A DNA stretch of 20,779 bases. Origin: Isosphaeraceae bacterium (GTDB lineage: Bacteria > Planctomycetota > Planctomycetia > Isosphaerales > Isosphaeraceae). Location of the stretch: contig DASZMJ010000454.1 of NCBI GenBank assembly GCA_035551935.1, forward strand, positions 1-20,779, read 5' to 3'. Shown here one piece after another: positions 4,272 through 20,457 of this stretch. Below the pieces are notes generated by a model. The model ran no database searches. It had not been told where the DNA came from and saw only the letters and a program-made list of their open reading frames with translations. Position 1 is the first letter of the stretch. Each line of letters begins with the position of its first letter. The translations under genes and the position numbers were made by a program.

Positions 4272-4282
4272 TCACGAGAAGA

Positions 4283-4473: not shown

Positions 4474-5934
4474 GTGATCGCGACGGGGGCGGGCGAGGTC
4501 GACTCGAGCGGCGCCGCGGCGCCGGCGGCGCGGTGGGCGCGGGCGACGTTCGCGATCCTCTTCGCGATGAACCTGCTCGACTACGTCGACCGCTACGTCC
4601 TGTCGGCGGTCCTGCCGCAGCTCTCACGGCCGGTCGAGCAGGGGGGCCTGGGCCTCAGCAACGTGCAGGAAGGGACGCTGGCGACGGCCTTCCTCGTCAG
4701 CTACTCGTTCTTCGGCCTGTTGATGGGCTGGGCCGGCGACCGCTTCAAGCGCAACTGGCTGCTCGGCGCGGGGGTCGCCGTCTGGGGCGTGGCGACCGTC
4801 GCCAGCGGCCTGGCCCGGAACTACGACGACCTCTGGTGGGCCCGCATCTGGCTCGGCGTCGGCGAGGCGACCTACGGCATCCTCGCGCCGACCGTGCTCG
4901 CCGACCTCTTCCCGCGCCAGCGGCGCTCGTTCATCCTCTCGTTGTTCTACCTGGCGATGCCGGTCGGCGCCGCCCTGGGGATGCAGCTCGGGTCGACGAT
5001 CGCGACGCGGTATAGCTGGCAGGCCGCCTTCTTCGTCGTCGGCGGGCCGGCATTGGCGGCGGCCTTGCTCGCCGTCGTGCTCCCCGAGCCGGCCCGCGGC
5101 GGCAGCGACCTCGGCGTCGAGGGCAAGCCGACCGGCATCGACCGGGTCAAGCCCTCGGGCCGCGACTACCTCGACCTGGCCGTCACCTCGTCGTATGCCT
5201 ATGCCGTCTTCGGGATGGCGATGTATACCTTCGCGATCGGCGGGATGTCGTACTGGTTCCTGAAGTTCCTGGTCCACACTCGAGGGATCGGCCAGGAGCG
5301 GGCGGGGCACATCCTCGGGCCGATCACCGCGCTGGCGGCGATCGTCGGCATGCTCTCCGGCGGCTGGCTGGCCGACCGGCTCGCGAAGACGAATCCGCGG
5401 GCCCTGTTCCTCGTGCCCGGCGTGGCGATGCTCGCGGCCTTGCCGTTCGTGGCGCTGGGGCTGTTCGCGACGTCGGGGCCGGCGATCTTCGCGGGGATCT
5501 TCCTCGCCGAGACCTTGATGTTCGTCAACACCGGGCCTTGCAACGCGATCATCGCCAACGTCGTCCTGCCGAACATGCGCGCCGCGGCGTTCGCGATCGC
5601 GATCTTCGCGATCCATGCGCTGGGCGACTTCTGGTCGCCGCGGCTGATCGGCTGGATGGCCGACGAGTTCGGCCGCGCCGACACGATGGCGACCGCGTAC
5701 GGCCGCTTCTTCGCCGCCCTCGGCGCCTTGCCGACGCAGCGCCCCGGCGAGGCCCCGGGCCGGATGGAGAACATCCTGGCCGGCCTCGTCGTCGTCATCC
5801 CCGCCATCGCCGCCTCGGGCCTCGTCCTGATCGCCGGCGCCCGCCACCTGCCGCGCGAGATGGCGATGATGCTCGCGCGGCTGAAAGTGACGGAAGAACT
5901 CACCGCGGAGGACGCGGAGATCGCAGAGAAATAA
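4474..5934 (+). CDS. MFS-family transporter with 12 predicted TM segments.
   Basis: MFS motif A GWAGDRFKRN is present and multiple hydrophobic helices follow. The start was chosen at GTG 4474, which sits 10 nt after GGGAGGGG (4458-4465) and is in frame. The ORF track starts at GTG 4366, but that codon lies inside the upstream palindrome arm. The stop is TAA at 5932-5934. Confidence 0.75.
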   Translation: MIATGAGEVDSSGAAAPAARWARATFAILFAMNLLDYVDRYVLSAVLPQLSRPVEQGGLGLSNVQEGTLATAFLVSYSFFGLLMGWAGDRFKRNWLLGAGVAVWGVATVASGLARNYDDLWWARIWLGVGEATYGILAPTVLADLFPRQRRSFILSLFYLAMPVGAALGMQLGSTIATRYSWQAAFFVVGGPALAAALLAVVLPEPARGGSDLGVEGKPTGIDRVKPSGRDYLDLAVTSSYAYAVFGMAMYTFAIGGMSYWFLKFLVHTRGIGQERAGHILGPITALAAIVGMLSGGWLADRLAKTNPRALFLVPGVAMLAALPFVALGLFATSGPAIFAGIFLAETLMFVNTGPCNAIIANVVLPNMRAAAFAIAIFAIHALGDFWSPRLIGWMADEFGRADTMATAYGRFFAALGALPTQRPGEAPGRMENILAGLVVVIPAIAASGLVLIAGARHLPREMAMMLARLKVTEELTAEDAEIAEK

Positions 5935-5989
5935 ACTCATTAAAAAATGATAGATTTTTCCTCTGCGATCTCCGCGTCCTCCGCGGTGA
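5900..5989. repeat. Perfect 29-bp inverted repeat (arms 5900-5928 and 5961-5989) around a 32-nt AT-rich loop. It is a candidate terminator or mobile palindrome.
   Basis: TCACCGCGGAGGACGCGGAGATCGCAGAG, loop aaataaactcattaaaaaatgatagatttttc, then CTCTGCGATCTCCGCGTCCTCCGCGGTGA. The left arm lies inside the MFS coding sequence (last 10 codons). The MFS stop codon is in the loop. Confidence 0.7.
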
Positions 5990-6014: not shown

Positions 6015-7010
6015 ATGACCAAGCCGATTCGCATCGCCGTGACCGGGGCCGGGGGCCAGATCGGCTACGCCCTGATCTTCCGGGTCGCCTCGGGGGGCCT
6101 GTTCGGGCCGAATCAGCCGGTCTCGCTCGGCCTGCTGGAGATCACCCCGGCCCTGCCGGCCCTGAACGGCACGTTGATGGAGCTGGAGGACTGCGCCTTC
6201 CCGCTCCTGGCCGACGTCAAGGCGACCGACAAGGCCGAGGAGGCGTTCGCCGGGGCCGACTGGGTCGTCCTCGTCGGCGGCCTGCCGCGCAAGGAGGGGA
6301 TGAGCCGCGCCGACCTGATCCGCGCCAACGGCCCGATCTTCACCGGCCAAGGGAAGGCGATCAACGACGACGCCGGCCCCGACGTCCGTATCCTGACCGT
6401 CGCCAACCCGTGCAACACCAACTGCCTGATCGCCCGGTCGCACGCCCCGCGCGTGCCGGCCGACCGCTGGTTCGCGATGACCCGACTCGACCAGAACCGC
6501 GCCGCCGCCCAACTGGCGAAGAAGGCCGGCGTGCCGGTCGGCCAGGTCTCGCGGATGACGATCTGGGGCAACCACAGCGACACCCAGTACCCCGACTTCA
6601 AGAACGCCCACGTCGGCGGCCGGCCGGCGCCCGAGGTCATCACCGATCACGCCTGGTTCACCGAGACCTTCGTGCCGACCGTCGCCAGGCGCGGCGCCGC
6701 GGTCATCAAGGCGCGCGGGGCGTCGTCGGCCGCCTCGGCGGCCAACGCGGCGATCGACAGCCTCCGATCGGCGACGACCCCGACGCCGAAGGACGACTGG
6801 TTCAGCGCCGGCGTCGTCGCCGACGGCAGCTACGGCATCCCCGCCGGCCTCATTTACAGCGTCCCCCTCCGCACCGCCGACGGCCGCTCGCACCAGATCG
6901 TCAAGGATCTGCCCGTCGACGCCGACGCCCGCGCCCGGCTCGACGCCTCGGCCAAGGAGCTCCGGGACGAGCGCGAGGCGGTCAAGGACCTGCTCGGCCC
7001 CGCGGCGTGA
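6015..7010 (+). CDS. mdh: Malate dehydrogenase, NAD-dependent, LDH/MDH superfamily (331 aa).
   Basis: N-terminal Rossmann motif [22 protein letters not shown]. Catalytic-region matches MTRLDQNRA and IWGNHS. GGAGG at 6004-6008 lies 6 nt before ATG 6015. The stop is TGA at 7008-7010. Confidence 0.9.
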
Positions 7011-7044
7011 CGCGGAATCGCCCGGAAACCACGTCTCCCGTCGT

Positions 7045-7390
7045 GGACCGTCTTTTCTCGAATGGTCTGCGGGAAGAGGTGCCGCGGCCGGACCCGGGCG
7101 ACGGCCGTCGGGAACGTCCCGATCCCCTCCGCTCGACGGTGTCGAGGTGGGCGCCGAGGACCGCGGCGTGGTCCGCGTCGGTGCGGCGACCGGCGGGGGG
7201 ATGCGGGCGTGGCGGCTCGCCTCGGCCGGCGCCACGCCGTCGCCGGTCCGGTCGGTCGGCCGCCGCCGCCGCGGGCCCGCGCGGCGGCGGCCGGCGCGGG
7301 TCCGGGTGTCGGTGTCGTGCCTGGGGGCCCCACCCCGAGAGGGCCTGTGGGTCCGATCCGGATTACAGACCATCTTCGGGTGGAAGGTCC
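7045..7390 (+). mobile_element. Copy A of a roughly 345-bp GC-rich MITE-like repeat with imperfect terminal inverted repeats of about 25 bp. It encodes no credible protein.
   Basis: About 99% identical to the reverse complement of 17148-17490, with 3 substitutions and one 3-bp indel. The ends are GGACCGTCTTTTCTCGAATGGTCTG ... CAGACCATCTTCGGGTGGAAGGTCC. It fills the mdh/dacB convergent intergenic space. Confidence 0.6.
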
Positions 7391-7466
7391 CGTAGGGTCC
7401 GCTCTTGCGGACCAGCTTCGATCCCATGATTTGATGGAAGATGGTCCGCAAGAGCGGACCCTACGG
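7390..7466. repeat. Perfect 25-bp inverted repeat (arms 7390-7414 and 7442-7466) with a 27-nt loop. Each arm contains a nested palindrome GGTCCGC-tctt-GCGGACC. It is a candidate terminator for dacB.
   Basis: CCGTAGGGTCCGCTCTTGCGGACCA ... TGGTCCGCAAGAGCGGACCCTACGG. It abuts the MITE copy A end (7390) and the dacB stop (7468-7470). Confidence 0.65.
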
Positions 7467-7467
7467 A

Positions 7468-9069
7468 TCAATCGCCGGCCTTGGCCCCGTCGTCTTTATC
7501 GTCGTATAAGGTTTCGCAGAGCCGGCCGAGGAGGCGGCCGGCGGCGGCGGGGGTGCCGGGGCCGTCGCCGGAGCCGTCGAGCGGGACGTTGTTCAGGAAG
7601 GCGGCGAAGACGAGCGATCGGCCCGAGGCGGTCTCGATGTAGCCGGCGAGGGCCTTGCTGGTCAGGACCCCTTTGCCGTTGAGGCTGTTCTCGACGTAGT
7701 ACGTCCCCGTCTTGGCGCGGACGTGCCCGCGCGCGGGGCTGTCGGGGCCGACAGCCTTGGCGAGCGTGCCGTCGCGGCCGAGGACCGGCAGGGCCGCCTC
7801 GAACGCGGCGAAGTCGGGCCGCCGCGCCATCGCCCGCAACAGCGCGACCGTCGCCCTCGGTGTCACGAGGTCCGCCCGGCTCCCGCCCGCGCCGCCGCCG
7901 AAGGAGATCGTGTCGATGTCGATGCCGGCCGACCGCAGGAACGCCCCCTCGCGCCGCAGGCCGTCGGCCAGGGTCGACTCGTCGTGGTGCGCCGCGACGA
8001 GTAGCGGCAACGTGCTGGCGTAGAGGTTGTGGCTCACCTTGAGGACCACGCGCACGTATTCCTTGAACGGCGGCGACGTGTACTCGGCCACCTTCGGCAG
8101 CTTCGCCACGGCGTCGCGGTCGGGGAGATGTTCGCCGCGGTTCGTGCCGAGCGGCGAGGCGACCACGCGGACCCCCCGGCGCCGGAGGGCCTCGATGAAC
8201 AGGGCGCGCGCGAACGAGGCCGGCTCCTCGACCTCGTACGCCTTGACGATCGCCTTGTGCCCGACGGGGATGCGGCCCCGGACCGAGAACCGCCTCGGCC
8301 CCTCGGCGCGGACGTGGAGGCGCGGCTCCCTCTCCCCCTCGACCGTCTCGACCCGCGCGTCCATCGCGACGAACGCCGTGCTCGGCACCGTCGATACCGT
8401 CGCCGGCTCGCCCGCGACGGCGGCCGGGGTGACGACGACGTCGACGAGGTTGTCGTTGACGACGATCGGCGACACGCGCGACGGCCCGCTGCCGCTGCTC
8501 TCGGCCGGGCGGAAGAGGCGGTCATCGATCAAGACATCTCCGCTCACGGCCGTGATGCCCGAGCCGCGGACCTCGCGCGCGAGGTGGTCGAGGCCGGCGA
8601 GCGGGTCGGCGCCGGCGAGGGCGGCGTTGGAGTTGCCGTCGGAATACGTGTGGTCGTTGTCGGCGAAGACGAGGCCGCCGTCGGGCCCGGTCCGGCCGCC
8701 GAGGCAGAGGTCTCCCGAGGCGACGAGGATCAAGTCGCCGTCGAGGGTGCCGTCCGACTCGACCTCGCCCCGGCGATGCACCGGCGTCCGGAACCGGTAA
8801 TCGGCCCCGAGGTCGTCGAGCGCCGCGGCCGTCGTGAACAGCTTCGTCACCGACGCCGGCGCGAACATCCGGTCCGCGTCGCGCTTATAGACGACCTCGC
8901 CCGTCCCCTTCTCGACGACCAGGATTCCCCATCCCCCGTGGCGATATCCCTCCGCCTTCAAGACCGCCTCGACCCTCTCCTCGACCGACTCTGCCCCCCT
9001 CGCCGTCCCCGCCGCGACGGCCAGTATCGATGCCATCGCGACGCGCCACGTTCGAGCCGACATGAGCAT
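7468..9069 (-). CDS. dacB: D-alanyl-D-alanine carboxypeptidase/endopeptidase, PBP4 (peptidase S13) family, with a signal peptide.
   Basis: SxxK motif FAPASVTKLF. SxN-like motif KVSHNLYAS. KTG motif RAKTGT, followed by LAGYIETASGRSLVFAAFLNN, which resembles PBP4. The start was chosen at the ATG doublet (9069 or 9063) directly after GGAGG on the minus strand. It gives MLMSARTWRVAMASILAVAAG, a signal-peptide-like N-terminus. The ORF track extends to GTG 9150. Confidence 0.8.
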   Translation of the reverse strand: MLMSARTWRVAMASILAVAAGTARGAESVEERVEAVLKAEGYRHGGWGILVVEKGTGEVVYKRDADRMFAPASVTKLFTTAAALDDLGADYRFRTPVHRRGEVESDGTLDGDLILVASGDLCLGGRTGPDGGLVFADNDHTYSDGNSNAALAGADPLAGLDHLAREVRGSGITAVSGDVLIDDRLFRPAESSGSGPSRVSPIVVNDNLVDVVVTPAAVAGEPATVSTVPSTAFVAMDARVETVEGEREPRLHVRAEGPRRFSVRGRIPVGHKAIVKAYEVEEPASFARALFIEALRRRGVRVVASPLGTNRGEHLPDRDAVAKLPKVAEYTSPPFKEYVRVVLKVSHNLYASTLPLLVAAHHDESTLADGLRREGAFLRSAGIDIDTISFGGGAGGSRADLVTPRATVALLRAMARRPDFAAFEAALPVLGRDGTLAKAVGPDSPARGHVRAKTGTYYVENSLNGKGVLTSKALAGYIETASGRSLVFAAFLNNVPLDGSGDGPGTPAAAGRLLGRLCETLYDDKDDGAKAGD

Positions 9070-9205
9070 TCCTCCCGGTGATGTTCCAGCAGATTCATAC
9101 CAGTCCAATGATTCGATTTCGCCGTCGCCCTCCCACCATAACCTCCCCACCCGGCCGCGTCACGCGCCTGGACCGGTCCTGAGCGGTGCGGCCCGTCGCG
9201 GGTCG

Positions 9206-9234
9206 TTGTGGAATCCGCTCGACAGCCGTAAGAT
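9206..9234 (+). promoter_or_regulatory. Sigma70-like promoter candidate for the HEAT-repeat gene.
   Basis: TTGTGG (9206-9211), a 17-nt spacer, then TAAGAT (9229-9234). This is about 30 nt upstream of ATG 9266, inside the divergent dacB/HEAT intergenic region. Confidence 0.3.
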
Positions 9235-9265
9235 CGTGGCACGTGTCCGACGGAGGAACTTGCCC

Positions 9266-10714
9266 ATGCGGCTTCCCCGAATCCGGGTCCGCGAGCTGAT
9301 GCTGCTGGTGGCCTGCTGCGCCTTCGTCTGCTGGGAGGCGATCGTCCTGCGCGACTCCGATCCGATCGCCGGCGCGACGCGCCGGCTCCGGTCGGGCGAC
9401 GTGGAGGTGCGGCGGGCGGCCGCGTCGGAGCTGGGCGTGCGGCTGTCGGACGCGCTGCCCGCCATACCGGCCCTGGTGGCGGCGACGCGCGACCCCGACG
9501 CCGAGGTCCGCCGCGCCGCCGCCGAGTCGATCGGCGTCGTCACGGCGCAGGGACCGGCCGGCGGGCCGGGCGAGGCCGCGGCGGTCCGGGCCCTGATGGC
9601 GGTCCTGGAGGACCCCGATCCGAGGCTGCGCGTGGCGGCGTCGACGGCCCTGCGGCGGATCGCCTCCCCCATCGCGGCCCCCGCGCTGGCCGCAGCCCTG
9701 CGCGACCGCAACCCGTCCGTCCGCGGGATCGCCGCGTCGGCCCTCGGCGGCATGGGACAGGCGTCCCGAGACCAGGCCCCGGCCTTGCTCGCGGCGATCG
9801 CCGCCGAGTCGGACCCGCGCGATCGCGAAGGGCTCTTGATCACACTGCCGCGGCTCGACCCCGACCCCGCCGTCGCCCTCCCGCCGTTAACGTCGCGGCT
9901 CGCCCGCGACGGCGACGAGCGCGCCCGCGCCGCGACGGCCCGCGCGCTCGGGGATGTGCTGGACGCCCGGCTGAGGGCGGGCGAGGTCCCCCCCGCGACC
10001 CATCCGGCCCTCGCCGCTCTCCGCGCCGCGATCTCCGACCGCTCGCCGCTCGTCCGCCTCCAGGCCGTCGCGTCCCTCGGCCGCATCCGGGCCTCGGCCC
10101 CCGACCCGCTCGCCCCCGTGCTGGATGAGGCCCTCCTCCGCGCCCTCTCCCACCGCCGTGCCGACGTCCGCGCGGCGGCGGCCAGCCTTTATTCCAGGAA
10201 CTGGATAACTCACGTCGATGTCATGCCGATTTCCGACGAGATCGTCCGCGCGCTGGTCAAGGGCCTGCGCGACCCCGAGGCCGATGTCCGCCATCATGCC
10301 GCGTGGGCGCTCATGCAAACCGCACGGGCCAGGCACCCCCTCGGCTCGAAGCACCACGACGCCTTCGTGCGTGTCCTCCCGGACCTTCGCGCCGCCCTGC
10401 GAGACAGCGACCTCACCGTCCGAGATGCGGCCTTCCACGCCCTGACGGCCCTCGGCCGCGGTGCCCCCGAGGGCGACCGCGACTTCCGCGCGGCCGCCCG
10501 CTTCGCGGCGAAGGAGTTCGTCGCCTTGTTGCGCGATCCTCGGGAAGACGTCCGGCAGATCGCAGCGACCTCCTTGATCTCGATCGACCCTCGCGACGCC
10601 GACCTCGTGCTCGACGCCCTCAGTTCCGCCGCCGAGCATGATAGGACGGAGGTCGTCCGGAACTCCGCGGCCTTCGCCGTGCAAAGGATCAAGGAAGTCC
10701 GAGCGTCGAAATAA
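9266..10714 (+). CDS. N-terminally membrane-anchored HEAT-repeat protein (PBS-lyase-type HEAT repeats, about 11 repeats).
   Basis: GGAGG at 9253-9257 lies 8 nt before ATG 9266. The N-terminus MRLPRIRVRELMLLVACCAFVCWEAIVL is a TM helix. Recurrent D/EVRRAAAxxLG units follow (AVRRAAASELG, EVRRAAAESIG, SVRGIAASALG, LVRLQAVASLG, ADVRHHAAWAL, DVRQIAATSL). Confidence 0.75.
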   Translation: MRLPRIRVRELMLLVACCAFVCWEAIVLRDSDPIAGATRRLRSGDVEVRRAAASELGVRLSDALPAIPALVAATRDPDAEVRRAAAESIGVVTAQGPAGGPGEAAAVRALMAVLEDPDPRLRVAASTALRRIASPIAAPALAAALRDRNPSVRGIAASALGGMGQASRDQAPALLAAIAAESDPRDREGLLITLPRLDPDPAVALPPLTSRLARDGDERARAATARALGDVLDARLRAGEVPPATHPALAALRAAISDRSPLVRLQAVASLGRIRASAPDPLAPVLDEALLRALSHRRADVRAAAASLYSRNWITHVDVMPISDEIVRALVKGLRDPEADVRHHAAWALMQTARARHPLGSKHHDAFVRVLPDLRAALRDSDLTVRDAAFHALTALGRGAPEGDRDFRAAARFAAKEFVALLRDPREDVRQIAATSLISIDPRDADLVLDALSSAAEHDRTEVVRNSAAFAVQRIKEVRASK

Positions 10715-10732
10715 CGACGCTCGGTGGGGCCG

Positions 10733-10760
10733 CCGCCGGGTCAAGTCCTCTGGCGGTTTT
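10733..10760 (+). terminator. Weak intrinsic-terminator candidate downstream of the HEAT gene.
   Basis: CCGCCG-ggtcaagtcctc-TGGCGG followed by TTTT at 10757-10760. Confidence 0.3.
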
Positions 10761-10848
10761 GCCGATTCTGCCTATGATGAGGGCCGGTCGGCCCAGGGAA
10801 CGGGTCGGGTCGGTGCCGAAGAGGTCCCAAGGACGGGGGTCACGAGCA

Positions 10849-12120
10849 ATGTCCCAAGGCGCGCAAGGCACATCGCGGCTGGCGTATCCCGTCACGATGG
10901 CGATGCTGGCCCTGGCGTTGGCGTTCCCGATCGCGTTGATGGTGCTGAACCCGACGCTCATGTTCGAGCGCGGCTGGGAGCAGTACGTCGGCACGGCGAT
11001 CTATCTGTGGGCGGTCGTGACCCTCGGCCGCGAGCTCTTGCGGCTCCGCAAGGACGAGCGCGCCTTCGACGATGCCCCGGCGCTGCTCGACGCCCTGGCC
11101 AGGGCCAAGCCCGCGAACGACGACGATCGCCGCCTGTTGCCGGGCCGATTGCGGCAGCTCGCGCGGCACGCCTCGGGGCCGTCGGCGCCGACGGTCGAGC
11201 AGCTCATGGAGCTGAACCGCGAAGGGTCGGGCCTCGACCAGGAGCAGGCGACGGGGCGGTTCACGATCACGCGATACATCCTCTATTTGCTGCCCGTCAT
11301 CGGCTTCATCGGCACGGTCGAGGGCATCAGCAAGGCGCTGATGAACATCAGCCGCGTCCTGCCGATGGTCAAGGACCTCGACGGCTTCCTCAACAACCTG
11401 ACGAGCGTGACCTCGGCCCTCCAGATCGCGTTCGACAGCACGTTGCTCGCGCTGTTCCTGAGCGCCGCGCTCATGCTGGTGCAGACGCTCGTCTTCCGCC
11501 GCGCCGAGGACTTGCTGGCGCGGGTCGATCGCTGGGTCGTCGACCACGCCTTGCCGAAACTGGGGCGCGCCGACGGCGAGGCGATCGCCGCATTGCCGGC
11601 GGTCCTGGCCGACCTCCGGCGCGACCTGCTCGTCCTCGGCGAGCGCATGGGCGCCGGCCTCGGGCCGCACGTGGCTCGGTTCTCCGAGGCGGTCGACCGG
11701 CTCGACCCGGCGCTCGCGAGCCTCCAGCGCGGCGCCGAGGCGATCGGCCGCGTCGGCGACGACCTCAAGGCCGTCGGCGAGTCCAACGACCTGCTCCGCC
11801 GCGGCGTCGCCACGCTCGGCCGCATCGAGTCGGCCCTCGCCCAGGACCGGGGCCCCGACGAGCAGCTCGAGCAGATCCGCCGCGGCGTCGAGCGCTCCTG
11901 TGCCGCCACCGAGGCCCTGGCCGGCCAGTGGTCGCAGGCCTTCGAGCGCACCAGCCGCCTCACCCAGGAGCAGCTCGCCCGCACCCTCCACAGCCTCAAG
12001 GACGCCCTCGACCTGCTCCAGGTCAGCATGGAACAGGGCAACGCCCTCTACCGCTCCATCGTCAAGAAGATCCTCCCCGTCTACCACGGCGACGACGAGT
12101 CCGACGCGCGGGCGGCGTGA
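10849..12120 (+). CDS. MotA/TolQ/ExbB-family proton-channel protein with a roughly 210-aa C-terminal coiled-coil cytoplasmic extension.
   Basis: TM1 is VTMAMLALALAFPIALMVL. The family motif LLPVIGFIGTVEGI corresponds to PxIGLxGTVxGI in TM2. The TM3-like segment is ALQIAFDSTLLALFLSAALMLVQTLVF. The tail is rich in heptad Ala/Leu/Arg/Glu. ATG 10849 was chosen because the upstream ATG 10759 has no RBS. Confidence 0.65.
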   Translation: MSQGAQGTSRLAYPVTMAMLALALAFPIALMVLNPTLMFERGWEQYVGTAIYLWAVVTLGRELLRLRKDERAFDDAPALLDALARAKPANDDDRRLLPGRLRQLARHASGPSAPTVEQLMELNREGSGLDQEQATGRFTITRYILYLLPVIGFIGTVEGISKALMNISRVLPMVKDLDGFLNNLTSVTSALQIAFDSTLLALFLSAALMLVQTLVFRRAEDLLARVDRWVVDHALPKLGRADGEAIAALPAVLADLRRDLLVLGERMGAGLGPHVARFSEAVDRLDPALASLQRGAEAIGRVGDDLKAVGESNDLLRRGVATLGRIESALAQDRGPDEQLEQIRRGVERSCAATEALAGQWSQAFERTSRLTQEQLARTLHSLKDALDLLQVSMEQGNALYRSIVKKILPVYHGDDESDARAA

Positions 12121-12224
12121 GGGTCGACCAACCGACACATGCCGGGCGCAGGAGCGGGCGGTCGTTCGCCAAGACGGCCGGCTCCGGGGACTTTGCGGAC
12201 CTCCTGCCCGGCGGTCGTGGAGGC

Positions 12225-12253
12225 TTGGAACCGGGCCGGGGCCCGATTAGAAT
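12225..12253 (+). promoter_or_regulatory. Sigma70-like promoter candidate for the STN-domain gene.
   Basis: TTGGAA (12225-12230), a 17-nt spacer, then TAGAAT (12248-12253). Confidence 0.3.
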
Positions 12254-12297
12254 GCAACGAGCGTCGGGGAGGCGAGGGGATCGGGAGGGCCGGGCCG

Positions 12298-13014
12298 ATG
12301 GGTGGGTCGCGTTCCAGGGGCGTCGCGGCGCTCGTGGCGGTGGGCATCGCCGCCGGCACGGCCGGCTGGGGCCTGCGGGCGCAGGGGCCGTCGCGTCGCC
12401 CGGAGCCCGCGACCGGGAACGCCCAGGCCAAGGCCAAGGCCGTCCCGAAGGGCTCGATCGCGGCCATCGAGGCGATGCTCCGGCCCGCCGCGTTGCCGTT
12501 CCAGGAGCCGACGCCGCTCGACGAGGTCGCCGCCCACCTGCGGACGATCCTCGGCGTCCCCGTCGTCCTCGACCGCGCCGCGCTGGACCGCCGCGAGCTG
12601 ACGCCCGAGTCGACCGTCACGATCGAGAAGCTCGACGGCGTCCGGCTCCGCACGGCCCTGAGGCTGTTGCTCGAGCCCGTCGGCCTGGTGGCCCGCGTCC
12701 TGCCCGAGGACAACATCGTCCTGATCACCGACGCCGCCGGCTCCGACGACCCGATCGACCACGTCCTGGCCGAGCTGCGGCGGCTGCACGACGATGTCCA
12801 CACCCTCCAGGACACCGTCGACGACCTCTACGACGAGATCGCGCCGCCGGAGGAGGTCAAGGACCTCGAGCTCCAGAAGGTGCGCGACGTCCGCCGGGCC
12901 GTCGACGACCTCCGGCGACGGGATCGAGCACGGCATCGACCGCCTTCCCCCGGAGCGACCTCGACACCCTCGGCCGGCTCACTCGGTCGCGTGGTTGATC
13001 TCGGGCCAGGTTGA
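12298..13014 (+). CDS. Small membrane-anchored or secreted protein with a secretin/TonB N-terminal (STN)-like domain and a C-terminal coiled coil.
   Basis: GGAGG at 12285-12289 lies 8 nt before ATG 12298. The N-terminus is MGGSRSRGVAALVAVGIAAGTAG. The segment PLDEVAAHLRTILGVPVVLDRAALDRRELTPESTVTIEKLDGVRLRTALRLLLEPVGLVARVLPEDNIVLIT fits the STN/secretin-N pattern. The remainder is coiled coil. Confidence 0.6.
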   Translation: MGGSRSRGVAALVAVGIAAGTAGWGLRAQGPSRRPEPATGNAQAKAKAVPKGSIAAIEAMLRPAALPFQEPTPLDEVAAHLRTILGVPVVLDRAALDRRELTPESTVTIEKLDGVRLRTALRLLLEPVGLVARVLPEDNIVLITDAAGSDDPIDHVLAELRRLHDDVHTLQDTVDDLYDEIAPPEEVKDLELQKVRDVRRAVDDLRRRDRARHRPPSPGATSTPSAGSLGRVVDLGPG

Positions 13015-13208
13015 GCTTCTCGTCGCAGTGTTCGGTCGCGGCCTTGCCGGTCATGGGGCGGCTCCGTGGCGTCGGGCCTCGACGACGCGCCATATCCATC
13101 GGGATCGACCCTCGGGCCTTGCGGGACGCACGCGGCGGGCGTATTCCTCGAAGGGACGTGTGCGAATCCACCCTCACCCCGGCCCTTTCCCAGGCGGACC
13201 GACCGTCG

Positions 13209-13309
13209 CTCTTCCCCGTAGCAGGCACGCTCCGCGTGCCGTCCGCCACGACCCAAGAGCTATGTGGTAGGGCGGACGGCACGCGGAGCGTGCCTGCTAC
13301 GGGGAAGAG
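13209..13309. repeat. Perfect 39-bp inverted repeat (arms 13209-13247 and 13271-13309) with a 23-nt loop.
   Basis: CTCTTCCCCGTAGCAGGCACGCTCCGCGTGCCGTCCGCC, loop acgacccaagagctatgtggtag, then GGCGGACGGCACGCGGAGCGTGCCTGCTACGGGGAAGAG. It is intergenic between the STN gene and the second MFS gene. Confidence 0.75.
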
Positions 13310-13348
13310 GGTCGGAGTGAGGGTCTCCTGCGATGGCGTAAGGGACAC

Positions 13349-14707
13349 ATGATGGCCCGACACGAACTCGACCAACGCGAGACGTTCGCGCACGACCTGG
13401 AAGGCGAGGGGCCGCCGTCGCGGGTGCGGTACGCGGTGCTGGCGGCGGCGTGCCTGCTGGCGATCGTGACGTACCTGCTCCGCGTCGGCTTCGCGACCGC
13501 CTCGGCGCAGCTCAAGGGGCCGCTCGGGCTCAACTCGGGACAGATCGCCGCGATGATGGCGTCGTTCATGATCGTCTACGGCCTGTTCGAGATCCCCTGG
13601 GGCCTGGTCGCCGACCGGCTCGGGGTGCGCAAGGCCCTGGCGATCATCGCGCTGGGGGGCTCGCTGACGACGGCGGCCGTGGCGCTGGTGCCGCGCCTGC
13701 CGGTCGGGACGTTCTGGCCGTTCGCGGCCTTGCTGGCGCTGCGGGCCCTGTTCGGGATGTTCCAGGCGGGGACCTTCCCCGCGCTCTCGCGGATGATGGC
13801 CGACTGGATGCCGACGGCCGAACGGGGCTCGGCGCAGGGCCTGATCTGGATGGCGAGCCGGATGGGCGGCGCGCTGGCGCCGCTCCTGATCGCCTGGCTG
13901 ATCAGCGAGACGGGGAGCTGGAGCCTCCCGCTGGTGCTCGCCTCGCTGACGGGCCTGGCCTGGTGCGCGGCGTTCGTCCCCTGGTTCCGCGACCGTCCGG
14001 AGCAGAAGGTGGGGGTGAACCCGGCCGAGCGCCGGTTGATCGAGGCGGGGCGGAAGGCCGGGGCCTCGGGTCACGGGCGCTTGCCGTGGGGCCGGGCGCT
14101 GGCGTCGCCGAACGTGTGGGCCCTCTGCGGGATGTACGGTTGCCTCGGCTTCAGCGGCAACTTCTTCCTGACGATGCTGCCGGACTACCTGAAGAACCAT
14201 CGGCACCTCTCGACGGGTGAGACTTCGTGGCTCTCGGCCCTGCCGCTGGCCTGCGGCGTCGTGGCCTGCGTGCTCGGGGGGGTCGTCTCCGATCGCCTGA
14301 TCCTGGCCTGGGGCGATCGCCGCTGGGCGCGTCGGGTCGCCGGCGCCCTCGGCATGGCGATGGCCGGCGCGGCGGTCCTGGCGACGATCGCCGTGCGCGA
14401 CGTCGTCCCGCTGGGGGTGCTGCTCTGCATCACCTTCTTCGGCAACGACCTGGCGATGGGCCCGGCCTGGGCCGCCGCCGCCGACATCGGCGAGCGGAAC
14501 GCCGGCACGCTCGGCGGGATGATGAACATGTTCGCCAGCTTCGCCGGCGCCGCCGGCGCCGCGATGATCGGCCCACTCACCGACGCGCACTATCTCCGGC
14601 TCCCGTTCGTCATCTTCGCCGCCGTCTATTGGATCGGCGCCCTCTGCTGGCTGCGGGTGGACGTCCTGGAGCCCCTGAGCGACGACGACCCGGCGCCCGA
14701 CGTCTAG
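13349..14707 (+). CDS. MFS-family transporter (ACS/anion-cation-symporter-like), 452 aa.
   Basis: 12 hydrophobic segments and an MFS-type loop motif (ADRLGVRKA). The sequence DWMPTAERGSAQGL resembles the ACS family. The start is the ATGATG at 13349. Confidence 0.75.
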   Translation: MMARHELDQRETFAHDLEGEGPPSRVRYAVLAAACLLAIVTYLLRVGFATASAQLKGPLGLNSGQIAAMMASFMIVYGLFEIPWGLVADRLGVRKALAIIALGGSLTTAAVALVPRLPVGTFWPFAALLALRALFGMFQAGTFPALSRMMADWMPTAERGSAQGLIWMASRMGGALAPLLIAWLISETGSWSLPLVLASLTGLAWCAAFVPWFRDRPEQKVGVNPAERRLIEAGRKAGASGHGRLPWGRALASPNVWALCGMYGCLGFSGNFFLTMLPDYLKNHRHLSTGETSWLSALPLACGVVACVLGGVVSDRLILAWGDRRWARRVAGALGMAMAGAAVLATIAVRDVVPLGVLLCITFFGNDLAMGPAWAAAADIGERNAGTLGGMMNMFASFAGAAGAAMIGPLTDAHYLRLPFVIFAAVYWIGALCWLRVDVLEPLSDDDPAPDV

Positions 14708-14716
14708 GAAATCGCC

Positions 14717-15178
14717 ATGTCCATCTACGTCGACGCCGATGCCTGCCCGGTCAAGGACGAGATCTATCGCGTGGCGCGGCGGCACGGGGTCAAGGTGTTC
14801 GTGGTCGCCAACGCGACGATGCGGGTGCCGGCCGAGGCGACGGTCGAGCTCGTCGTGGTCCGCGGCGGCTTCGACGCGGCCGACGACTGGATCGCCGAGC
14901 GTGCCGGGCTCGGGGACGTGGTCGTCACCGCCGACATCCCGCTCGCCGACCGCTGCCTGCGGCGCGGGGCCCGGGTGCTCGGTCCGAAGGGGGACGTCTT
15001 CACCGAGGACGCGATCGGCGAGGCCCTCGCGACCCGCGCGTTGCTCGACATGCTCCGCCAGTCCGGCCAGTTCACCGGCGGCCCCGCCCCGTTCGCCAAG
15101 GCCGACCGCTCTCGGTTCCTCTCCAGGCTCGACGACCTCCTCCACGCCGCTCGCCGGGCCAGGCCACCGGCCCCGTGA
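14717..15178 (+). CDS. yaiI: YaiI/UPF0178 (DUF188) family protein.
   Basis: The N-terminus [12 protein letters not shown] is the hallmark of this family. [10 protein letters not shown] and ADIPLA segments are conserved. AGGAAA lies 7 nt upstream. The start is 9 nt after the MFS stop, which suggests an operon. Confidence 0.8.
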
Positions 15179-15366
15179 TGGATCGGCCGCGGGAAATGCG
15201 GTCGGGTGGCGCGCCCGGAGTCCGCGACGGGCGTGGGCGACGCCGGGGTCAGACGCCCTTCGAAGACTCCGGGCGTGCCACCCGACCGGAGTCGATCGAG
15301 GTCGGCGCGTCGTGCCGGAAAACGGCGACGGCCGCGCGAACGCCTGGGCAGGATCGTGCGTCTACA

Positions 15367-15452
15367 AGGGGCAGAGCACGACAGGGGTGTCCTCCTGGGA
15401 GAGGTCTCCGGCTCCAACCCGGACGGACAGGGTTCGACTCCTTGCGCCCCTG
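15367..15452 (+). tRNA. tRNA-Trp-like (anticodon CCA) gene with a roughly 15-nt extra hairpin between the D and anticodon arms. It is either a pseudogene or a non-canonical tRNA.
   Basis: The acceptor AGGGGCA/CGCCCCT plus discriminator G matches E. coli tRNA-Trp (AGGGGCG..CGCCCCTG). D-arm GCAC-GACAGGG-GTGT. Anticodon arm TCCGG-CTCCAAC-CCGGA. T-arm CAGGG-TTCGACT-CCTTG. The extra segment CCTCCTGGGAGAGGTC (15391-15406) precedes the anticodon stem. No CCA is encoded. Confidence 0.4.
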
Positions 15453-15457
15453 CTCGA

Positions 15458-15487
15458 CGACGGCCAGCGGGGCCGTCGCGCGTTTTT
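15458..15487 (+). terminator. Hairpin plus T5 terminator candidate after the Trp-like tRNA.
   Basis: CGACGGCC-agcgg-GGCCGTCG (8-bp stem), then gcgcg, then TTTTT at 15483-15487. Confidence 0.3.
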
Positions 15488-15591
15488 CAAGCAAGCGGCT
15501 GGGACCGTCGGGCCCGCGGCGCGCCGGCCTCGCCCTCGTGGCGATCGGCCTGGTGTGTTCCGTGAAGGGGATGTAAACCGGGGCGGTCCCA

Positions 15592-15665
15592 GGCTGTGGT
15601 AGCTCAGAGGATAGAGCACCGGGCCCATAACCCGGGTGTCGCGGGTTCGACTCCCGTCCACCGAC
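15592..15665 (+). tRNA. tRNA-Met/fMet-like (anticodon CAT) with canonical D, anticodon and T arms but an imperfect acceptor stem.
   Basis: GGCTGTGG-TA-GCTC-AGAGGATA-GAGC-A-CCGGG-CCCATAA-CCCGG-GTGTC-GCGGG-TTCGACT-CCCGT-CCACCGA-C. There are three G:C pairs closing the anticodon stem. Position 33 is C. The acceptor has mismatches at 1:72 and 3:70. An extra 5' G could pair with C73. Confidence 0.55.
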
Positions 15666-16030
15666 CGCGGTCCCCGAACAGGACCGCTCGGGGAGCGTTC
15701 GCAGCGCTTCCGCCAATCGCCCGAGGGGGGCGGCCGGCCGCGACGATCGGCCGACGCCCGGCGATCAGCCCCGCCCGCGCGGGGACCGGGCCGGGCGTCG
15801 GCGGCACGAGAGGACGCCCTGAAGTGCGCGGATTCCGCCGTCGGAGATCGCCGGACCCGAAGGCCGCCCAGGCGGCCCGAACCCCGGCGACGACCGCCCG
15901 CTCAAGCCGCACTCCGCATCCCGACGTGTGATCGCCGGCCGCGCCGTCCCCCGACGGCCAAAACTCGATGTCGTCATTCTTTCAACGAATCCTAAGTCCC
16001 GCGGCCGAGGCCAGGGGCGGGGAGGTCGCG

Positions 16031-17137
16031 ATGTTCTTCGTCAAGTCGTCCAAGGTCCGCAGCTTCGAGGTCGGCCTCCTGTTCCGCGACGGCGAGTTCC
16101 GCGGCCTGCTCGGCGAGGGCACGCACCGCGTGTTCGACCCGCTCGGCAAGGTCGCCGTCGAGGTCGTCTCGCGGCGGGTGCCGCAGCTCCTGCACGAGAA
16201 GCTCGACCTGATCGTCGCCTCGGGCGTCCTCAAGGGCATGGCCACGGTCCTCGACCTCAAGGACGACCAGCGCGGCCTGGTCTGGGTCGACGGCCGGTTC
16301 TTCGGCGTCTGCGCGCCGGGCCTGCACGTCCTCTGGAACGGCCCGAGGGCACTCCGGGTCGAGGTCGTCGACGCCCGCCGCCCGCGGCTCGAGCACGACG
16401 AATTGCAGACGATCACGCGGTGGTCGGCCGCGAGCACGCTGCTCGACGTCTGCGACGTCAACCGCGGCTGCGCGGGCGTGCTCTTCCTCGACGGCCGTTA
16501 CGCCGACACGCTGGCGCCGGGCCGCTACGCCTTCTGGAAGGGCGTGGCCGATGCGCGCGTCGTCGAGGTCGACCTGCGCGAGGCATCGCTCGACGTCGGC
16601 GGCCAGGAGATCATGACGGCCGACCGCGTGACGCTCCGCCTGAACGTCGTCGTGACCTACCGCGTCGTCGACGCTCGTCGCGCCGTCTGCGCGTCGGAGG
16701 ACGCCCGGCAGGGCCTCTACCGCGAGGCGCAGCTCGCGCTCCGCGCCGTCGTCGGCGGCCGGACGCTCGACGCGCTCCTGGCCGACAAGGAGGCCCTCGC
16801 CGCCGAGCTCGTCGACCTGCTCCGCGGCCGGGCGGCCGAATTGGGCCTGGAGGTCGTCGCCGCGGGCATCCGCGACGTCATCCTGCCGGGCGAGATGAAG
16901 GAGCTGTTGAACAAGGTCATGGAGGCCCGCACGGCCGCCGAGGCCAACCTCGTCACCCGCCGTGAGGAGACCGCCGCGCTCCGCAGCCAGGCCAACACCG
17001 CCCGCCTGCTCGCCGAGAACCCGACGCTCATGCGGCTCCGCGAGCTCGAGGTCCTCGAGAAGGTCGCCTGCGGCGGCGAGCTCAAGATCGTCCTCGGCGA
17101 GAAGGGCCTCGCCGATCGCCTCGTCAACCTGCTCTGA
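16031..17137 (+). CDS. SPFH/band-7 (stomatin/prohibitin/flotillin/HflKC) domain protein with no N-terminal TM segment.
   Basis: GGAGG at 16021-16025 lies 5 nt before ATG 16031. The SPFH core is DRVTLRLNVVVTYRVVD...LGLEVVAAGIRDVILPGEMKELLNKVMEARTAAEA...LRELEVLEKVA. The stop is TGA at 17135-17137. Confidence 0.8.
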   Translation: MFFVKSSKVRSFEVGLLFRDGEFRGLLGEGTHRVFDPLGKVAVEVVSRRVPQLLHEKLDLIVASGVLKGMATVLDLKDDQRGLVWVDGRFFGVCAPGLHVLWNGPRALRVEVVDARRPRLEHDELQTITRWSAASTLLDVCDVNRGCAGVLFLDGRYADTLAPGRYAFWKGVADARVVEVDLREASLDVGGQEIMTADRVTLRLNVVVTYRVVDARRAVCASEDARQGLYREAQLALRAVVGGRTLDALLADKEALAAELVDLLRGRAAELGLEVVAAGIRDVILPGEMKELLNKVMEARTAAEANLVTRREETAALRSQANTARLLAENPTLMRLRELEVLEKVACGGELKIVLGEKGLADRLVNLL

Positions 17138-17147
17138 AACCCATAGC

Positions 17148-17490
17148 GGACCTTCCACCCGAAGATGGTCTGTAATCCGGATCGGACCCACAGGCCCTCT
17201 CGGGGTGGGGCCCCCGGGCACGACACCGACACCCGGACCCGCGCCGGCCGCCGCCGCGCGGGCCCGCGGCGGCGGCCGACCGACCGGACCGGCGACGGCG
17301 TGGCGCCGGCCGAGGCGAGCCGCCACGCCCGCATCCCCCCGCCGGCCGCCGCACCGACGCGGACCTCGCCGCGGTCCTCGGCGCCCACCTCGACACCGTC
17401 GAGCGGAGGGGATCGGGACGTTCCCGACGGCCGTCGCCCGGGTCCGGCCGCGGCACCTCTTCCCGCAGACCATTCGAGAAAAGACGGTCC
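17148..17490 (-). mobile_element. Copy B of the roughly 345-bp MITE-like repeat, in inverted orientation relative to copy A.
   Basis: The reverse complement of 17148-17490 aligns end to end with 7045-7390 at about 99% identity. It fills the convergent intergenic space between the SPFH gene and the metalloprotease gene. Confidence 0.6.
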
Positions 17491-17499
17491 GCTACAAAA

Positions 17500-20457
17500 T
17501 CAGGGCTCGTTGGCGTCGAGGCCGGCCTCGAGGACCTTGCCGATCTTGTGGCGGCAGTCTTCGAGGTGGGCGCGGGTGGTGTCGTCGATGGTGACGTCCT
17601 TCCGCTCGAGCAGCTTGCCGATGCGGTCGCCGATCTGGCGGAGGTGGAGCCGGGCCAGCGCCCGCGCGTCGGCGGGATAGGAGCCGCCGCCGTTGAAGGA
17701 GAGGAAGGCGAAGGAGCCGCCGAAGTCGCCCCGGCGCTCGCCGAGGACGATGGTGCTGAGGCGCTTCAGGTACTCGCGCTGGAGGTTGCGGCGGACGGTC
17801 GAGAGGGCGACCTCCCTGGGCGCGGCCTTGGCCTTGTCGTCGGGCTTGGCGGCCTTGTCGTCGACGAGGTCGCAGCAGTCGCAATCGGCGTCGGGGTTGG
17901 CCTCGGACCAGATGCCGTCGGAGAGGGTCCGGAAGACCTCGGCCATCTTCAGCGGCTTGGAGCCGGGCTCGGCCTGGAGCTCCTGGTTCTGGAGCCGGGC
18001 CAGGACCTCGGGCGCGAGGCACTGCGCCAGGACGATGCGCTGGACGTCGAGGACGCGTTGATGGACGGGATAGTCCACCTCGCCGAGCATCATCGCCTCG
18101 TTGCCCCAGCCCGACCACTTCTCGGTGGCGAGGCGGCGGAGCAACGCCGGCGAGAACTTGAAGGCGCGGTCGCTGAGGATCTGGTCGACGAGGAACGCCA
18201 GGCACTCGCGCTGCTTCGGACCCGGCACGGGGACGATCGGGTCGCGGGCGTTCTTGTCCCCCTTGTGGTCGCGGGAGATCGACTGGCCGCCGATGTAGTT
18301 GGAGACGAGGTACGCCGCGTTGCCGTACTGCGACAGCAGGATCGCGAAGGCGCGGCGGTTCCGCGACCACGGCTCGCCGTCGCGGACGACCTTGGCGTCG
18401 AGGTCCTTGAGCAGCTCGGCCGACAGCGCGATGCGGTCCTTGGCGAAGCGGCAGACGTCGGAGCCGAGGTCGAAGCGGTTGACCTGCGGGTCGTTGTTCA
18501 GCGCGGCGTCCTCGTCGGTCGCGAAGGCCAGGTCGGGCTCGGGGGCCCGCGCGGCGATCGCCCTCAGCTCGCCGGCCTCGTCGCCCATGATGGGCTTATA
18601 CGCATATTCGATGGCCCAGTAGTCGTACGGGCCGAGGGTGGTCGTGTAATAGTCCCCCTGCTTGACCCCCTTGGGCGCGATGTTGACGGGGCTGTAGTCC
18701 ATCACGCTGCCGACGAGCCCCTTGACGCGGGTGATGGCCGTGTCGTTGAGCTGCTCGGCGGTCAGCATCGCGCTGGCCTTGAAGTTGTGCCGCAGGCCGA
18801 TCGAGTGGCCGACCTCGTGCATGACCACTTCCTTGAGCGCCTGGCCGATGAACTCCTCGGGCACCTCGACCGGGCCCCCCTTGCCGCCGCGGTCCGGCAC
18901 GGCCAGCGCCATCGCCGCCAGCGCGAAGTCGGCCTGCATGCCGGCCTGATAGGTGCAGGTATGACCATCCCGACGCGCCAGCCGGCTCAGCCGGTAGTCG
19001 AGCGACGACCAGTCCGCCGGCACGACCGAGGGCGCGTTCGCCGCGCCGTTGCCCCGGCCCGCCGTCAGCGGCAACGGGCCGCCGAAGCCGTACTTCGCGG
19101 CCATGATCGGGCTGATGACCTCGCCGACGGCCAGCGGGGTCAGGTCGAGCTCGCCCCCCTGCCCCGTCGGCTTCGCGCCGATCATCAGGGCGTATTCCTG
19201 CTTCCAGTGGCGGATGAAGCTCGAGTCGAAGATCACGTCGCCGTCGATGATCTCGCCGGTCAAGGGGTTCGAGCGGAAGCACGTCCGCGCGTAGCCGCGA
19301 TCGCTCGTGACCCAGCGGAAGGTGCAATAGCTCGTGTCCTCGGGGTCGAACTCCTCGCCCGGCTGCTGCCAGCGCACGGCCAATGCGTTGCGGAAGCCGA
19401 TCTTCTCGAACGCCTTGTTCCACTCGAGGATGCCCGCCTCGACATACGGCCGGTACTCGTGCGGCACCGTGTCCTCGACCCACCAGACGACCTGCTTCCG
19501 CGGCGGCGAGAGCTTCGCCCGCATGTCGGCCTTGTCGAGCCGCCAGCGGTTGAGCAGGCGAACATAGTTCGAATCGGAGTCGGTCGAGCCGAAGTCCTTC
19601 GACGTGCTCAGCCAGTGGCCGATGCGGTCGTCGGCCAATCGGGTCCGGAAGCCGAAGTCGTTGGGCAGGCGGATGAGGCTGTAGTGGATGACCAGGGTGA
19701 TCCCGCGCGGGTCGGCGACGCCGTCGTTGCCGCCGAACATCGCCATCATCCCGCGCATCCCGGCGCCGCCGAAGGTGGCCTCGACCTCGAGCTCGAGGTT
19801 GTCCTTCAGCCCCTTGACCTTGTACCAGGACGACCGGCTCCGGTCGAGGAAGCCGAGGTTGAGCTGCGCCAGGTCGGTCATGAACATGTCGGCCAAGTCG
19901 ATGACCGTCGCGCCCGAGGGGCTGACCGTGCGGATCGGCAGCGACATCAGCACGGAGTCGACGTAGTTCTGCTTGACCGACTTCTCGATCGGCGTGCCGG
20001 GCGTGGCCTTGTAGCTGATGTTGCGCCGGACGAGCTGGATGTGCTCGTCGACCTTGCGGAAGACGACGACCATCTCGTCGCCGTTGGAGACCGGCTCGCC
20101 GGTGCGTCCCAGGCCGCGGGCGATGGTGGCCAGCACGAGCATCGGCTGGTCGAGCTGGTGCGGGCGGATCTCGGCGTAGAGGTGCTCGTCCTTGCGGTGG
20201 AGGGTGAAGAGGCCGTCGATCTTCTCGGCCCCCCGGGTCATCTCGTTGAAGTCGGGATAATGCCGGTCGCTGGCGCCCCCTCCCACACGGCCCGGGCCGC
20301 CGGCCGCGCGCATCTGGCTGAGGATCGCGTCGAGGTCGGCCTTGGTCTCGCCCCCGGCCTTGGTCTCGGGCCTGGGCTCCTGCGCCCGCACGCCCACCGT
20401 CCCGATGGTCATGGCGAGGGCCGTCGCGACCCCCCCCCATATCGTGGTTCGTCTCAT
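17500..20457 (-). CDS. Secreted zinc-dependent metalloprotease of the DUF4953/DUF5117/DUF5118 family (985 aa).
   Basis: HExxH motif VMHEVGHSIGLRHNF. ATG 20457 gives the signal-peptide-like N-terminus MRRTTIWGGVATALAMTIGTVGVRAQEP. The ORF track's upstream GTG extension was not used. The stop is TGA at 17500-17502. Confidence 0.8.
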   Translation of the reverse strand: MRRTTIWGGVATALAMTIGTVGVRAQEPRPETKAGGETKADLDAILSQMRAAGGPGRVGGGASDRHYPDFNEMTRGAEKIDGLFTLHRKDEHLYAEIRPHQLDQPMLVLATIARGLGRTGEPVSNGDEMVVVFRKVDEHIQLVRRNISYKATPGTPIEKSVKQNYVDSVLMSLPIRTVSPSGATVIDLADMFMTDLAQLNLGFLDRSRSSWYKVKGLKDNLELEVEATFGGAGMRGMMAMFGGNDGVADPRGITLVIHYSLIRLPNDFGFRTRLADDRIGHWLSTSKDFGSTDSDSNYVRLLNRWRLDKADMRAKLSPPRKQVVWWVEDTVPHEYRPYVEAGILEWNKAFEKIGFRNALAVRWQQPGEEFDPEDTSYCTFRWVTSDRGYARTCFRSNPLTGEIIDGDVIFDSSFIRHWKQEYALMIGAKPTGQGGELDLTPLAVGEVISPIMAAKYGFGGPLPLTAGRGNGAANAPSVVPADWSSLDYRLSRLARRDGHTCTYQAGMQADFALAAMALAVPDRGGKGGPVEVPEEFIGQALKEVVMHEVGHSIGLRHNFKASAMLTAEQLNDTAITRVKGLVGSVMDYSPVNIAPKGVKQGDYYTTTLGPYDYWAIEYAYKPIMGDEAGELRAIAARAPEPDLAFATDEDAALNNDPQVNRFDLGSDVCRFAKDRIALSAELLKDLDAKVVRDGEPWSRNRRAFAILLSQYGNAAYLVSNYIGGQSISRDHKGDKNARDPIVPVPGPKQRECLAFLVDQILSDRAFKFSPALLRRLATEKWSGWGNEAMMLGEVDYPVHQRVLDVQRIVLAQCLAPEVLARLQNQELQAEPGSKPLKMAEVFRTLSDGIWSEANPDADCDCCDLVDDKAAKPDDKAKAAPREVALSTVRRNLQREYLKRLSTIVLGERRGDFGGSFAFLSFNGGGSYPADARALARLHLRQIGDRIGKLLERKDVTIDDTTRAHLEDCRHKIGKVLEAGLDANEP

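Follow-up and report, generated by a model that had tools for sequence, protein, structure and literature searches.

The locus and its two repeat copies

The subject of this study is a non-coding repeat of about 345 nt that is present as two inverted copies in a 20,779-nt contig, the whole of which we refer to as the window. The contig is part of a metagenome-assembled genome (MAG) of an Isosphaeraceae bacterium, an uncultured planctomycete, which is an NCBI third-party annotation (TPA) record with proteins HWE38964–HWE38973 and derives from a short-read metagenome. Copy A (7045–7390, + strand, 346 nt) begins 34 nt 3′ of the stop codon of the malate dehydrogenase gene mdh (6015–7010, +), which forms the outer member of a convergent pair with dacB (Peptidase_S13; 7468–9069, −). 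Copy B (17148–17490, − strand, 343 nt) is placed 10 nt from the stop codon of an SPFH/slipin gene (Band_7; 16031–17137, +) and 9 nt from that of a Met-zincin metalloprotease gene (DUF4953/DUF5117; 17500–20412, −), the outer member of the second convergent pair. Both copies therefore occupy 3′ spacers between convergent genes, as a first-pass annotation of this DNA had proposed. The same annotation held that each copy fills its intergenic space entirely; this is true of copy B, where only the 10 and 9 nt are left over, but not of copy A, which is accompanied by the 34 nt on the mdh side and by a 77-nt hairpin on the dacB side.

A repeat scan of the window yields one long inverted repeat, returned in two abutting pieces (7040–7269 with 17266–17495, and 7262–7397 with 17141–17276), and the limits of the shared unit were set by pairwise alignment and by script. 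The copies are 99% identical, far above chance, and the limits are sharp. They differ by three substitutions, at element positions 125 (T in A, A in B), 145 (A/G) and 278 (T/C), and by a single 3-nt GCC indel at positions 215–217. The outer coordinates (7045 and 17490) and the 99% identity reported in the first-pass annotation are exact by repeat scan, alignment and script alike.

Between dacB and the SPFH gene, and all on the + strand, the segment carries a HEAT-repeat gene (9266–10714), a MotA/ExbB-like gene (MotA_ExbB; 10849–12120), a gene for a hypothetical protein of 238 amino acids (12298–13014), an MFS gene (13349–14707), a YaiI/DUF188 gene (14717–15178), a tRNA-Trp gene (15383–15453) and a tRNA-like gene called as Met (CAT; 15593–15666). 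Domain matches bear out the earlier labels for mdh, dacB, the HEAT-repeat gene, the MFS gene, YaiI/DUF188, SPFH/Band_7, Met-zincin and MotA_ExbB. The exception is the gene at 12298–13014, previously labeled "STN," for whose product neither a Pfam match at E ≤ 0.1 nor a precomputed domain exists; the protein has a hydrophobic stretch at its N terminus. The two genes that had both been described as tRNA-like prove to be of different kinds, one being the genuine tRNA-Trp and the other the tRNA-like gene called as Met.

Independent assemblies and scope of the comparisons

The same locus was found, by exact-protein matches, in a second assembly: contig Ga0376674_0004095 (24,214 nt) of Joint Genome Institute (JGI) metagenome 3300036800. 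The JGI and NCBI TPA contigs have different ends and show five mismatches, all in the uvrA region, while both repeat copies and the whole segment between them are identical. The arrangement, the single orientation and the phasing of the four copy-specific differences are thus the same in both independent assemblies. A third assembly (Logan, SRR11842680) provides a 2180-nt contig, L084, that bears an identical SPFH gene. At one end this contig terminates inside yaiI, 38 nt past window position 14960; at the other it reaches exactly 30 nt inside copy B, measured from the terminal GGACC, and stops there. This distance is k−1 for k = 31, the expected behavior of a de Bruijn graph at a repeat boundary, and the stop therefore independently confirms the GGACC end of the repeat. 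An exact-protein search with the four junction genes recovered the source contig and one Logan contig ending in the repeat, and no alternative junctions.

Relatives were represented by 172 fetched loci, including 2.07 Mb of sequence contributed by some 160 genomes and metagenome contigs of related Isosphaeraceae/Planctomycetota. Within this set, 80 genome loci surround the MotA/ExbB-like gene (L002–L081) and 83 surround the SPFH gene (L087–L169), for which 80 metagenome loci were retrieved. The closest relatives, at 88–91% amino acid identity (JGI 3300047160), were compared through gene tables only.

The segment between the copies is ordinary chromosome

The GC content stays at 0.69–0.75 throughout and does not step up or down at either copy. 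Genes inside and outside the segment agree in synonymous codon use (r = 0.99), and the GC content of third codon positions (GC3) lies between 0.90 and 0.97 in all genes. Tetranucleotide composition is equally uniform, with a correlation of 0.953 within a class and 0.954 between inside and outside chunks. GC skew was considered as a marker of orientation and found uninformative, as it tracks the coding strand. The gene calls for the 24-kb contig include no integrase, transposase, recombinase or REP-associated tyrosine transposase (RAYT; REP, repetitive extragenic palindrome), and the genes of the segment are of housekeeping type, with none for mobility or accessory functions. The 10.4 kb between the copies is ordinary chromosome, neither an island nor a mobile unit.

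Anatomy of the element

At 78% GC, the element exceeds the window's figure of about 72%. Nearly all six of its reading frames are open; however, its highest codon-position GC is 0.83, compared with the GC3 of 0.90–0.97 in real genes, and without a codon-position signal of that kind we regard it as non-coding. A search of proteins with the concatenated six-frame translation gave no match, a weak negative given that its 8000 candidates were saturated with low-complexity words.

The element has a pair of terminal inverted repeats (TIRs) of 25 nt, which are imperfect (about 17 of 25 positions matched) and have the tips GGACC...GGTCC. The left TIR, GGACCGTCTTTTCTCGAATGGTCTG, spans 7045–7069 on the + strand of copy A and recurs unchanged in copy B at 17490–17466 on the − strand. 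The right TIR, CAGACCATCTTCGGGTGGAAGGTCC, spans 7366–7390 (+), or GGACCTTCCACCCGAAGATGGTCTG when reverse-complemented, and overlaps a subterminal hairpin with 19-nt arms (7330–7348 and 7365–7383 in copy A). The two ends share a perfect 5-nt terminal run together with an in-register 8-mer (ATGGTCTG/CAGACCAT); in an anchored test with random 30-mer pairs from the window, the joint chance of the run and the 8-mer is 2e-4.

The center of the element is occupied by a perfect 13–14-bp GC hairpin. In the minimum free energy fold the two ends pair into a long stem (z = −3.5; z = −2.8 for the opposite strand). No Rfam family matches the element, even when it is searched alone with lax filters, and the only Rfam matches are of generic hairpin models to a neighboring palindrome, far under their thresholds. 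Neither copy contains a sigma-70-like promoter or a consistent terminator-like site.

Flanking sequences and neighboring hairpins

On the + strand, copy A is preceded by ...GTCTCCCGTCGT and followed by CGTAGGGTCCGC..., and copy B is preceded by ...GAAACCCATAGC and followed by GCTACAAAATCA.... A short direct repeat thus brackets each copy separately: CGT/CGT, of 3 nt, for A, and GC/GC, of 2 nt, for B. No direct repeat (0 nt) surrounds the unit from A to B as a whole, for which the outer flanks are ...CCCGTCGT and GCTACAAA.... An inversion between the copies, whether by homologous recombination or by intramolecular replicative transposition, is expected to leave a reciprocal signature in the flanks; this signature is absent, with matches of 0 and 1 nt. 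In all but one of the four flanks, the tip of the element is followed 1–2 nt further out by GTAG or CGTC, and these tags differ between the copies.

The 77-nt hairpin at 7390–7466, which separates copy A from the dacB stop codon, is an inverted doublet of GTAG-tagged palindromes, GTAG-GGTCCGC-TCTT-GCGGACC ... GGTCCGC-AAGA-GCGGACC-CTAC, and resembles a REPIN, the inverted REP doublet. It was considered as a part of the repeat and rejected, as copy B is without it. Its similarity to the right end of the element is weak, with a score reached by 6 of 300 shuffles before correction for six tests. A second GTAG-tagged, REPIN-like inverted doublet is located at 13203–13315, and a further GTAG-tagged hairpin is seen at 685. 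More generally, long near-perfect hairpins are found in many intergenic gaps of the window (671–767, 4274–4386, 5900–5989, 7390–7466, 13203–13315 and 15199–15288); all differ in sequence, and the arms are 34–45 nt in the four that were measured. The unit GGTCCGC-N(3-6)-GCGGACC occurs four times in the window, counting both strands, and not once in the 2.07 Mb of relatives.

REPs tagged with GTAG or CGTC are known in Planctomycetes, where they lie mostly between convergent open reading frames (ORFs), and the same report cites work on REPs as targets of insertion sequence (IS) elements (PMC3733652). The flanks described above would suit an element that inserts into 3′ spacers with REPs, which, with two copies, is only a lead.

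The element appears confined to the source lineage

Further copies were sought in several collections. An exact 20-mer from the left end has no match in the JGI contig subset, to which the source contig itself does not belong, or among the GTDB representatives, which comprise one genome per species; an exact 20-mer from the right end has none in IMG/VR. A blastn search of plasmids and phages with the whole element returned nothing real, the one match being an irrelevant 49 nt of GC-rich coding sequence in a Streptomyces plasmid. Across the 172 fetched loci, both blastn and an nhmmer profile detect the element only on the source contig, and it does not follow SPFH or dacB in the readable relatives. 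Judged from these searches, the element appears to be restricted to the Isosphaeraceae lineage of the source.

No other window gene lies within 10 kb of the MotA/ExbB-like gene in 80 species representatives, and around SPFH (83 loci) other window genes are nearby in Tautonia only, where an mdh-MFS pair is found about 5 kb upstream of a tRNA array, on the opposite strand. The gene that follows SPFH is different in every relative examined (isochorismatase, HATPase_c, sulfatase). The gene that follows dacB encodes an MscS-like channel or GATase_3 in relatives at about 70% identity. In a relative at 88% identity, the spacer after dacB is only about 99 nt long, too short for the element, and the convergent gene beyond it encodes at least 494 amino acids, a length that excludes mdh (331 amino acids). 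Were this neighbor the Met-zincin gene, the relative would carry the inverted arrangement. The Met-zincin cluster has no member on a 3,008-nt contig, however, and the neighbor could equally well be an MscS-like gene of the kind seen in L170. From these comparisons junction A appears specific to the source lineage, and junction B appears not to be conserved in any relative examined.

Gene order as a whole is essentially unconserved across the roughly 160 Isosphaeraceae/Planctomycetota loci, even at 70–80% protein identity; the exceptions are the link between the tRNA array and SPFH and, in Tautonia, the nearby mdh-MFS pair. Since gene order differs around every gene tested in all relatives, synteny cannot decide which orientation of the segment is ancestral. 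Breakpoints relative to these genomes fall at nearly all gene boundaries, so finding them at the repeats is weak evidence for a rearrangement mediated by the repeats.

Origin of the repeat pair

We consider it on balance probable that the copies represent two insertions of a lineage-restricted, non-autonomous repeat of about 345 nt, similar to a miniature inverted-repeat transposable element (MITE), in harmless 3′ spacers. The pair has the small size, the lack of coding capacity and the terminal inverted repeats that are expected of MITEs. Under this reading, each copy would have inserted in a short 3′ spacer between convergently transcribed genes and done no harm, and the near-identity of the copies would reflect recent duplicative movement rather than long-term homogenization. 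Both the mobility of the element and the time of its insertion are inferred, and the native core chromosome between the copies would merely happen to separate two insertion sites.

The known MITEs Correia, ERIC and MITEAba12 (PMC10969869) resemble the element in being small and non-coding, in their TIRs and strong hairpin fold, and in having near-identical copies in intergenic positions near the 3′ ends of genes. Several observations nevertheless weigh against a MITE. Two copies are known, both on the 24-kb contig, and searches of public collections added none, such that a dispersed family, the hallmark of MITEs, is not demonstrated. The TIRs match at only about 17 of 25 positions, the presumed target duplications are unequal (3 versus 2 nt) and may be due to chance, and the GC content of 78% is unlike that of the known MITEs, as is the lack of a relative in any searchable collection. 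In addition, no parent IS with matching ends is present on the contig and none is known, and no true empty site, with the same two flanking genes and no element, was seen in the relatives examined.

REPs and REPINs, palindromic repeats with GTAG or CGTC tags that are mobilized by RAYT transposases (PMC3733652), offer a second comparison. They share with the element a position between convergent ORFs and a layout of two inverted ends plus a spacer; its tips GGACC/GGTCC recall the half-stems GCGGACC/GGTCCGC of the neighboring REP unit, and the tags stand just outside three of its four ends. In contrast to a REPIN, however, the element is about four times longer, its tags are in the flanks, outside the shared sequence, and no RAYT is encoded on the contig. 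The size, against 20–40 nt for a palindromic REP unit, and the external tags led us to reject the 346-nt element as a REP or REPIN, whereas the hairpins at 7390–7466 and 13203–13315 do fit this class.

Long, near-identical inverted repeats are good substrates for recombination, and at 343 nt and 99% identity the copies would serve RecA well. The suggestion in the first-pass annotation that the intervening segment could invert without breaking a gene is a fair inference from the positions of repeats and genes, and RecA-dependent inversion of the 10.4-kb segment is possible. Other readings of the pair are less probable. It is a stronger claim, and one that we think unlikely, that the second copy arose in an inversion of the segment or that the pair has since mediated one, by intramolecular replicative transposition or by RecA recombination, with both orientations perhaps coexisting in the population. 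Such a history would agree with the apparent lineage specificity of both junctions (the gene after dacB in the 88% relative, and the neighbor downstream of SPFH), and with Tautonia, in which the mdh-MFS1 and tRNA-SPFH pairs are neighbors in the other relative orientation. Known MITE-bounded composites also show that a segment between inverted copies can invert, the TIME-COMPs of TIME244 being flipped in 52 versus 62 replicons (PMC13367494). Here, however, the short direct repeats remain private to each copy and the flanks lack the post-inversion signature, two independent assemblies agree on one orientation and on the phasing of the copy-specific differences, and breakpoints are so near-ubiquitous that their coincidence with the repeats carries little weight. 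The geometry of two inverted copies is also that of inversions by inverted IS copies or by intramolecular replicative transposition, for example by IS26 "in trans" (PMC13367494); unlike these, the present locus has neither the reciprocal flank signature nor a transposase. An invertase or shufflon-type switch was considered and rejected, because the 24-kb contig has no recombinase among its called genes and the repeats are 343 nt long rather than short sites. It is slightly less likely again that the element is a functional module, either a structured RNA gene or a bidirectional terminator or insulator, that was duplicated and has been kept identical by selection or gene conversion. The strong predicted structure on both strands, the perfect central GC hairpin and the location of both copies where terminators are needed, with the element forming the only intergenic sequence at copy B, would all suit a module of this kind. 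Against it are the missing Rfam match, the absence of a homolog at equivalent positions or elsewhere in the relatives, the use of unrelated hairpins in the other convergent spacers of the window, and the lack of promoter-like and of consistent terminator-like sites; the three substitutions between the copies are too few for covariation.

Two further accounts are very improbable. The pair recalls a composite transposon in that TIME-COMPs and the IMU likewise consist of a multi-kb segment between inverted copies of a 250–450-nt TIR element, some TIME-COMPs exceeding 10 kb (PMC13367494), and the first-pass annotation had suggested a possible island or accessory block; on either account the segment would have moved, or been acquired, as a unit. 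In contrast to TIME-COMPs, there are no 5–6-bp direct repeats around the unit, its outermost ends sharing 0 nt; the cargo is native and of housekeeping type and sits on a chromosome rather than a plasmid; and there is no sign of a Tn3-family partner. The island proposal does not survive the likeness of GC content, tetranucleotides and codon use inside and outside, the lack of mobility and accessory genes, or the finding that the internal tRNAs are the remnant of an array ancestrally linked to SPFH across the family. An artefact of the metagenome assembler, by which the repeat or a join through it was created, is just as hard to sustain. The contig does come from short-read metagenome data, and a typical read is probably shorter than the repeat; but the JGI and NCBI TPA contigs give the same two copies, with the same four differences and in the same arrangement, despite their different ends, the Logan unitig independently supports the junction between SPFH and the element, and the copies are non-identical, unlike a path collapsed or duplicated by the assembler. 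The two concordant assemblies and the stop of L084 at the repeat boundary make an artefact unlikely.

Considered on its own, the MITE-like pair that we favor is an expected feature of an uncultured planctomycete and matters little. Repeats of this type are nevertheless worth annotating, as they break short-read assemblies, of which L084 is an example, and can seed inversions. The pair would gain in interest if the family proved abundant and lay at breakpoints of rearrangement. Synteny is notoriously poor among planctomycete genomes, and little has been described of what scrambles them. The apparent lineage specificity of both junctions and the GTAG/CGTC tags at three of the four ends lead to a bolder and rather doubtful proposal, in which an undescribed, lineage-specific repeat family targets REP-tagged 3′ spacers and drives the scrambling of Isosphaeraceae genomes by recombination between copies; the two junctions would then be recent breakpoints, and the segment would flip within the population.

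A tRNA array and a tRNA-like element upstream of the slipin gene

In relatives, a large array of tRNA genes on the same strand lies directly upstream of the SPFH/slipin gene. It comprises 27 tRNAs in Tautonia plasticadhaerens and 13–25 in several metagenome contigs. Examples of the array are at 6893–9554 of L089 and 488–2496 of L087, and others are in L093, L103, L108, L116 and elsewhere. The array usually ends in the order ...His Trp (Thr) Arg Arg (Arg) Cys X, where X is the last member before slipin; in L090, the closest relative for which DNA is available, it reads Trp-Thr-Arg-Arg-Arg-Cys-Met. In the window (15383–15666) the array is reduced to Trp and the last member, which points to an old breakpoint just upstream of tRNA-Trp, between yaiI and the remnant. 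A hint from a MAFFT alignment that this tRNA-Trp might be a remoulded tRNA-Cys was rejected, as the gene is 85% identical to the Tautonia tRNA-Trp and has A1-U72 and G73.

The last "tRNA" before slipin (15593–15666 in the window) appears, from its pattern of conservation, to be a conserved tRNA-like element and not a decoding tRNA. It is found in the same place, 290–650 nt upstream of SPFH, in about 30 aligned loci. Compensatory changes at 13 of 18 pairs preserve the D, anticodon and T arms. The D and T loops hardly vary, and only four acceptor pairs are conserved. The anticodon, by comparison with these features, drifts freely (CAT, GTT, GAG, TTT, TAA, TGA, AAG, CTG, GTA, GAT, AAT, CGT, ATT and TTA). 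Some anticodon loops have 6 or 8 nt, and there are "Leu" and "Ser" versions without a long variable arm. A role as a processing signal, placed between the array and the slipin mRNA, is conceivable. A tRNA array with a tRNA-like cap whose anticodon is unconstrained may deserve more attention than the repeat.

At the other end of the window are two adjacent UvrA-family genes, the window opening with the 3′ end of the first (ORF ending at 688). Positions 3–302, in the first, and 2919–3218, in the next, are 73% identical at the DNA level. The second gene (about 216–4271) is unusually long, with 1351 amino acids in the JGI call, and includes UvrA_inter and UvrA_DNA-bind domains.

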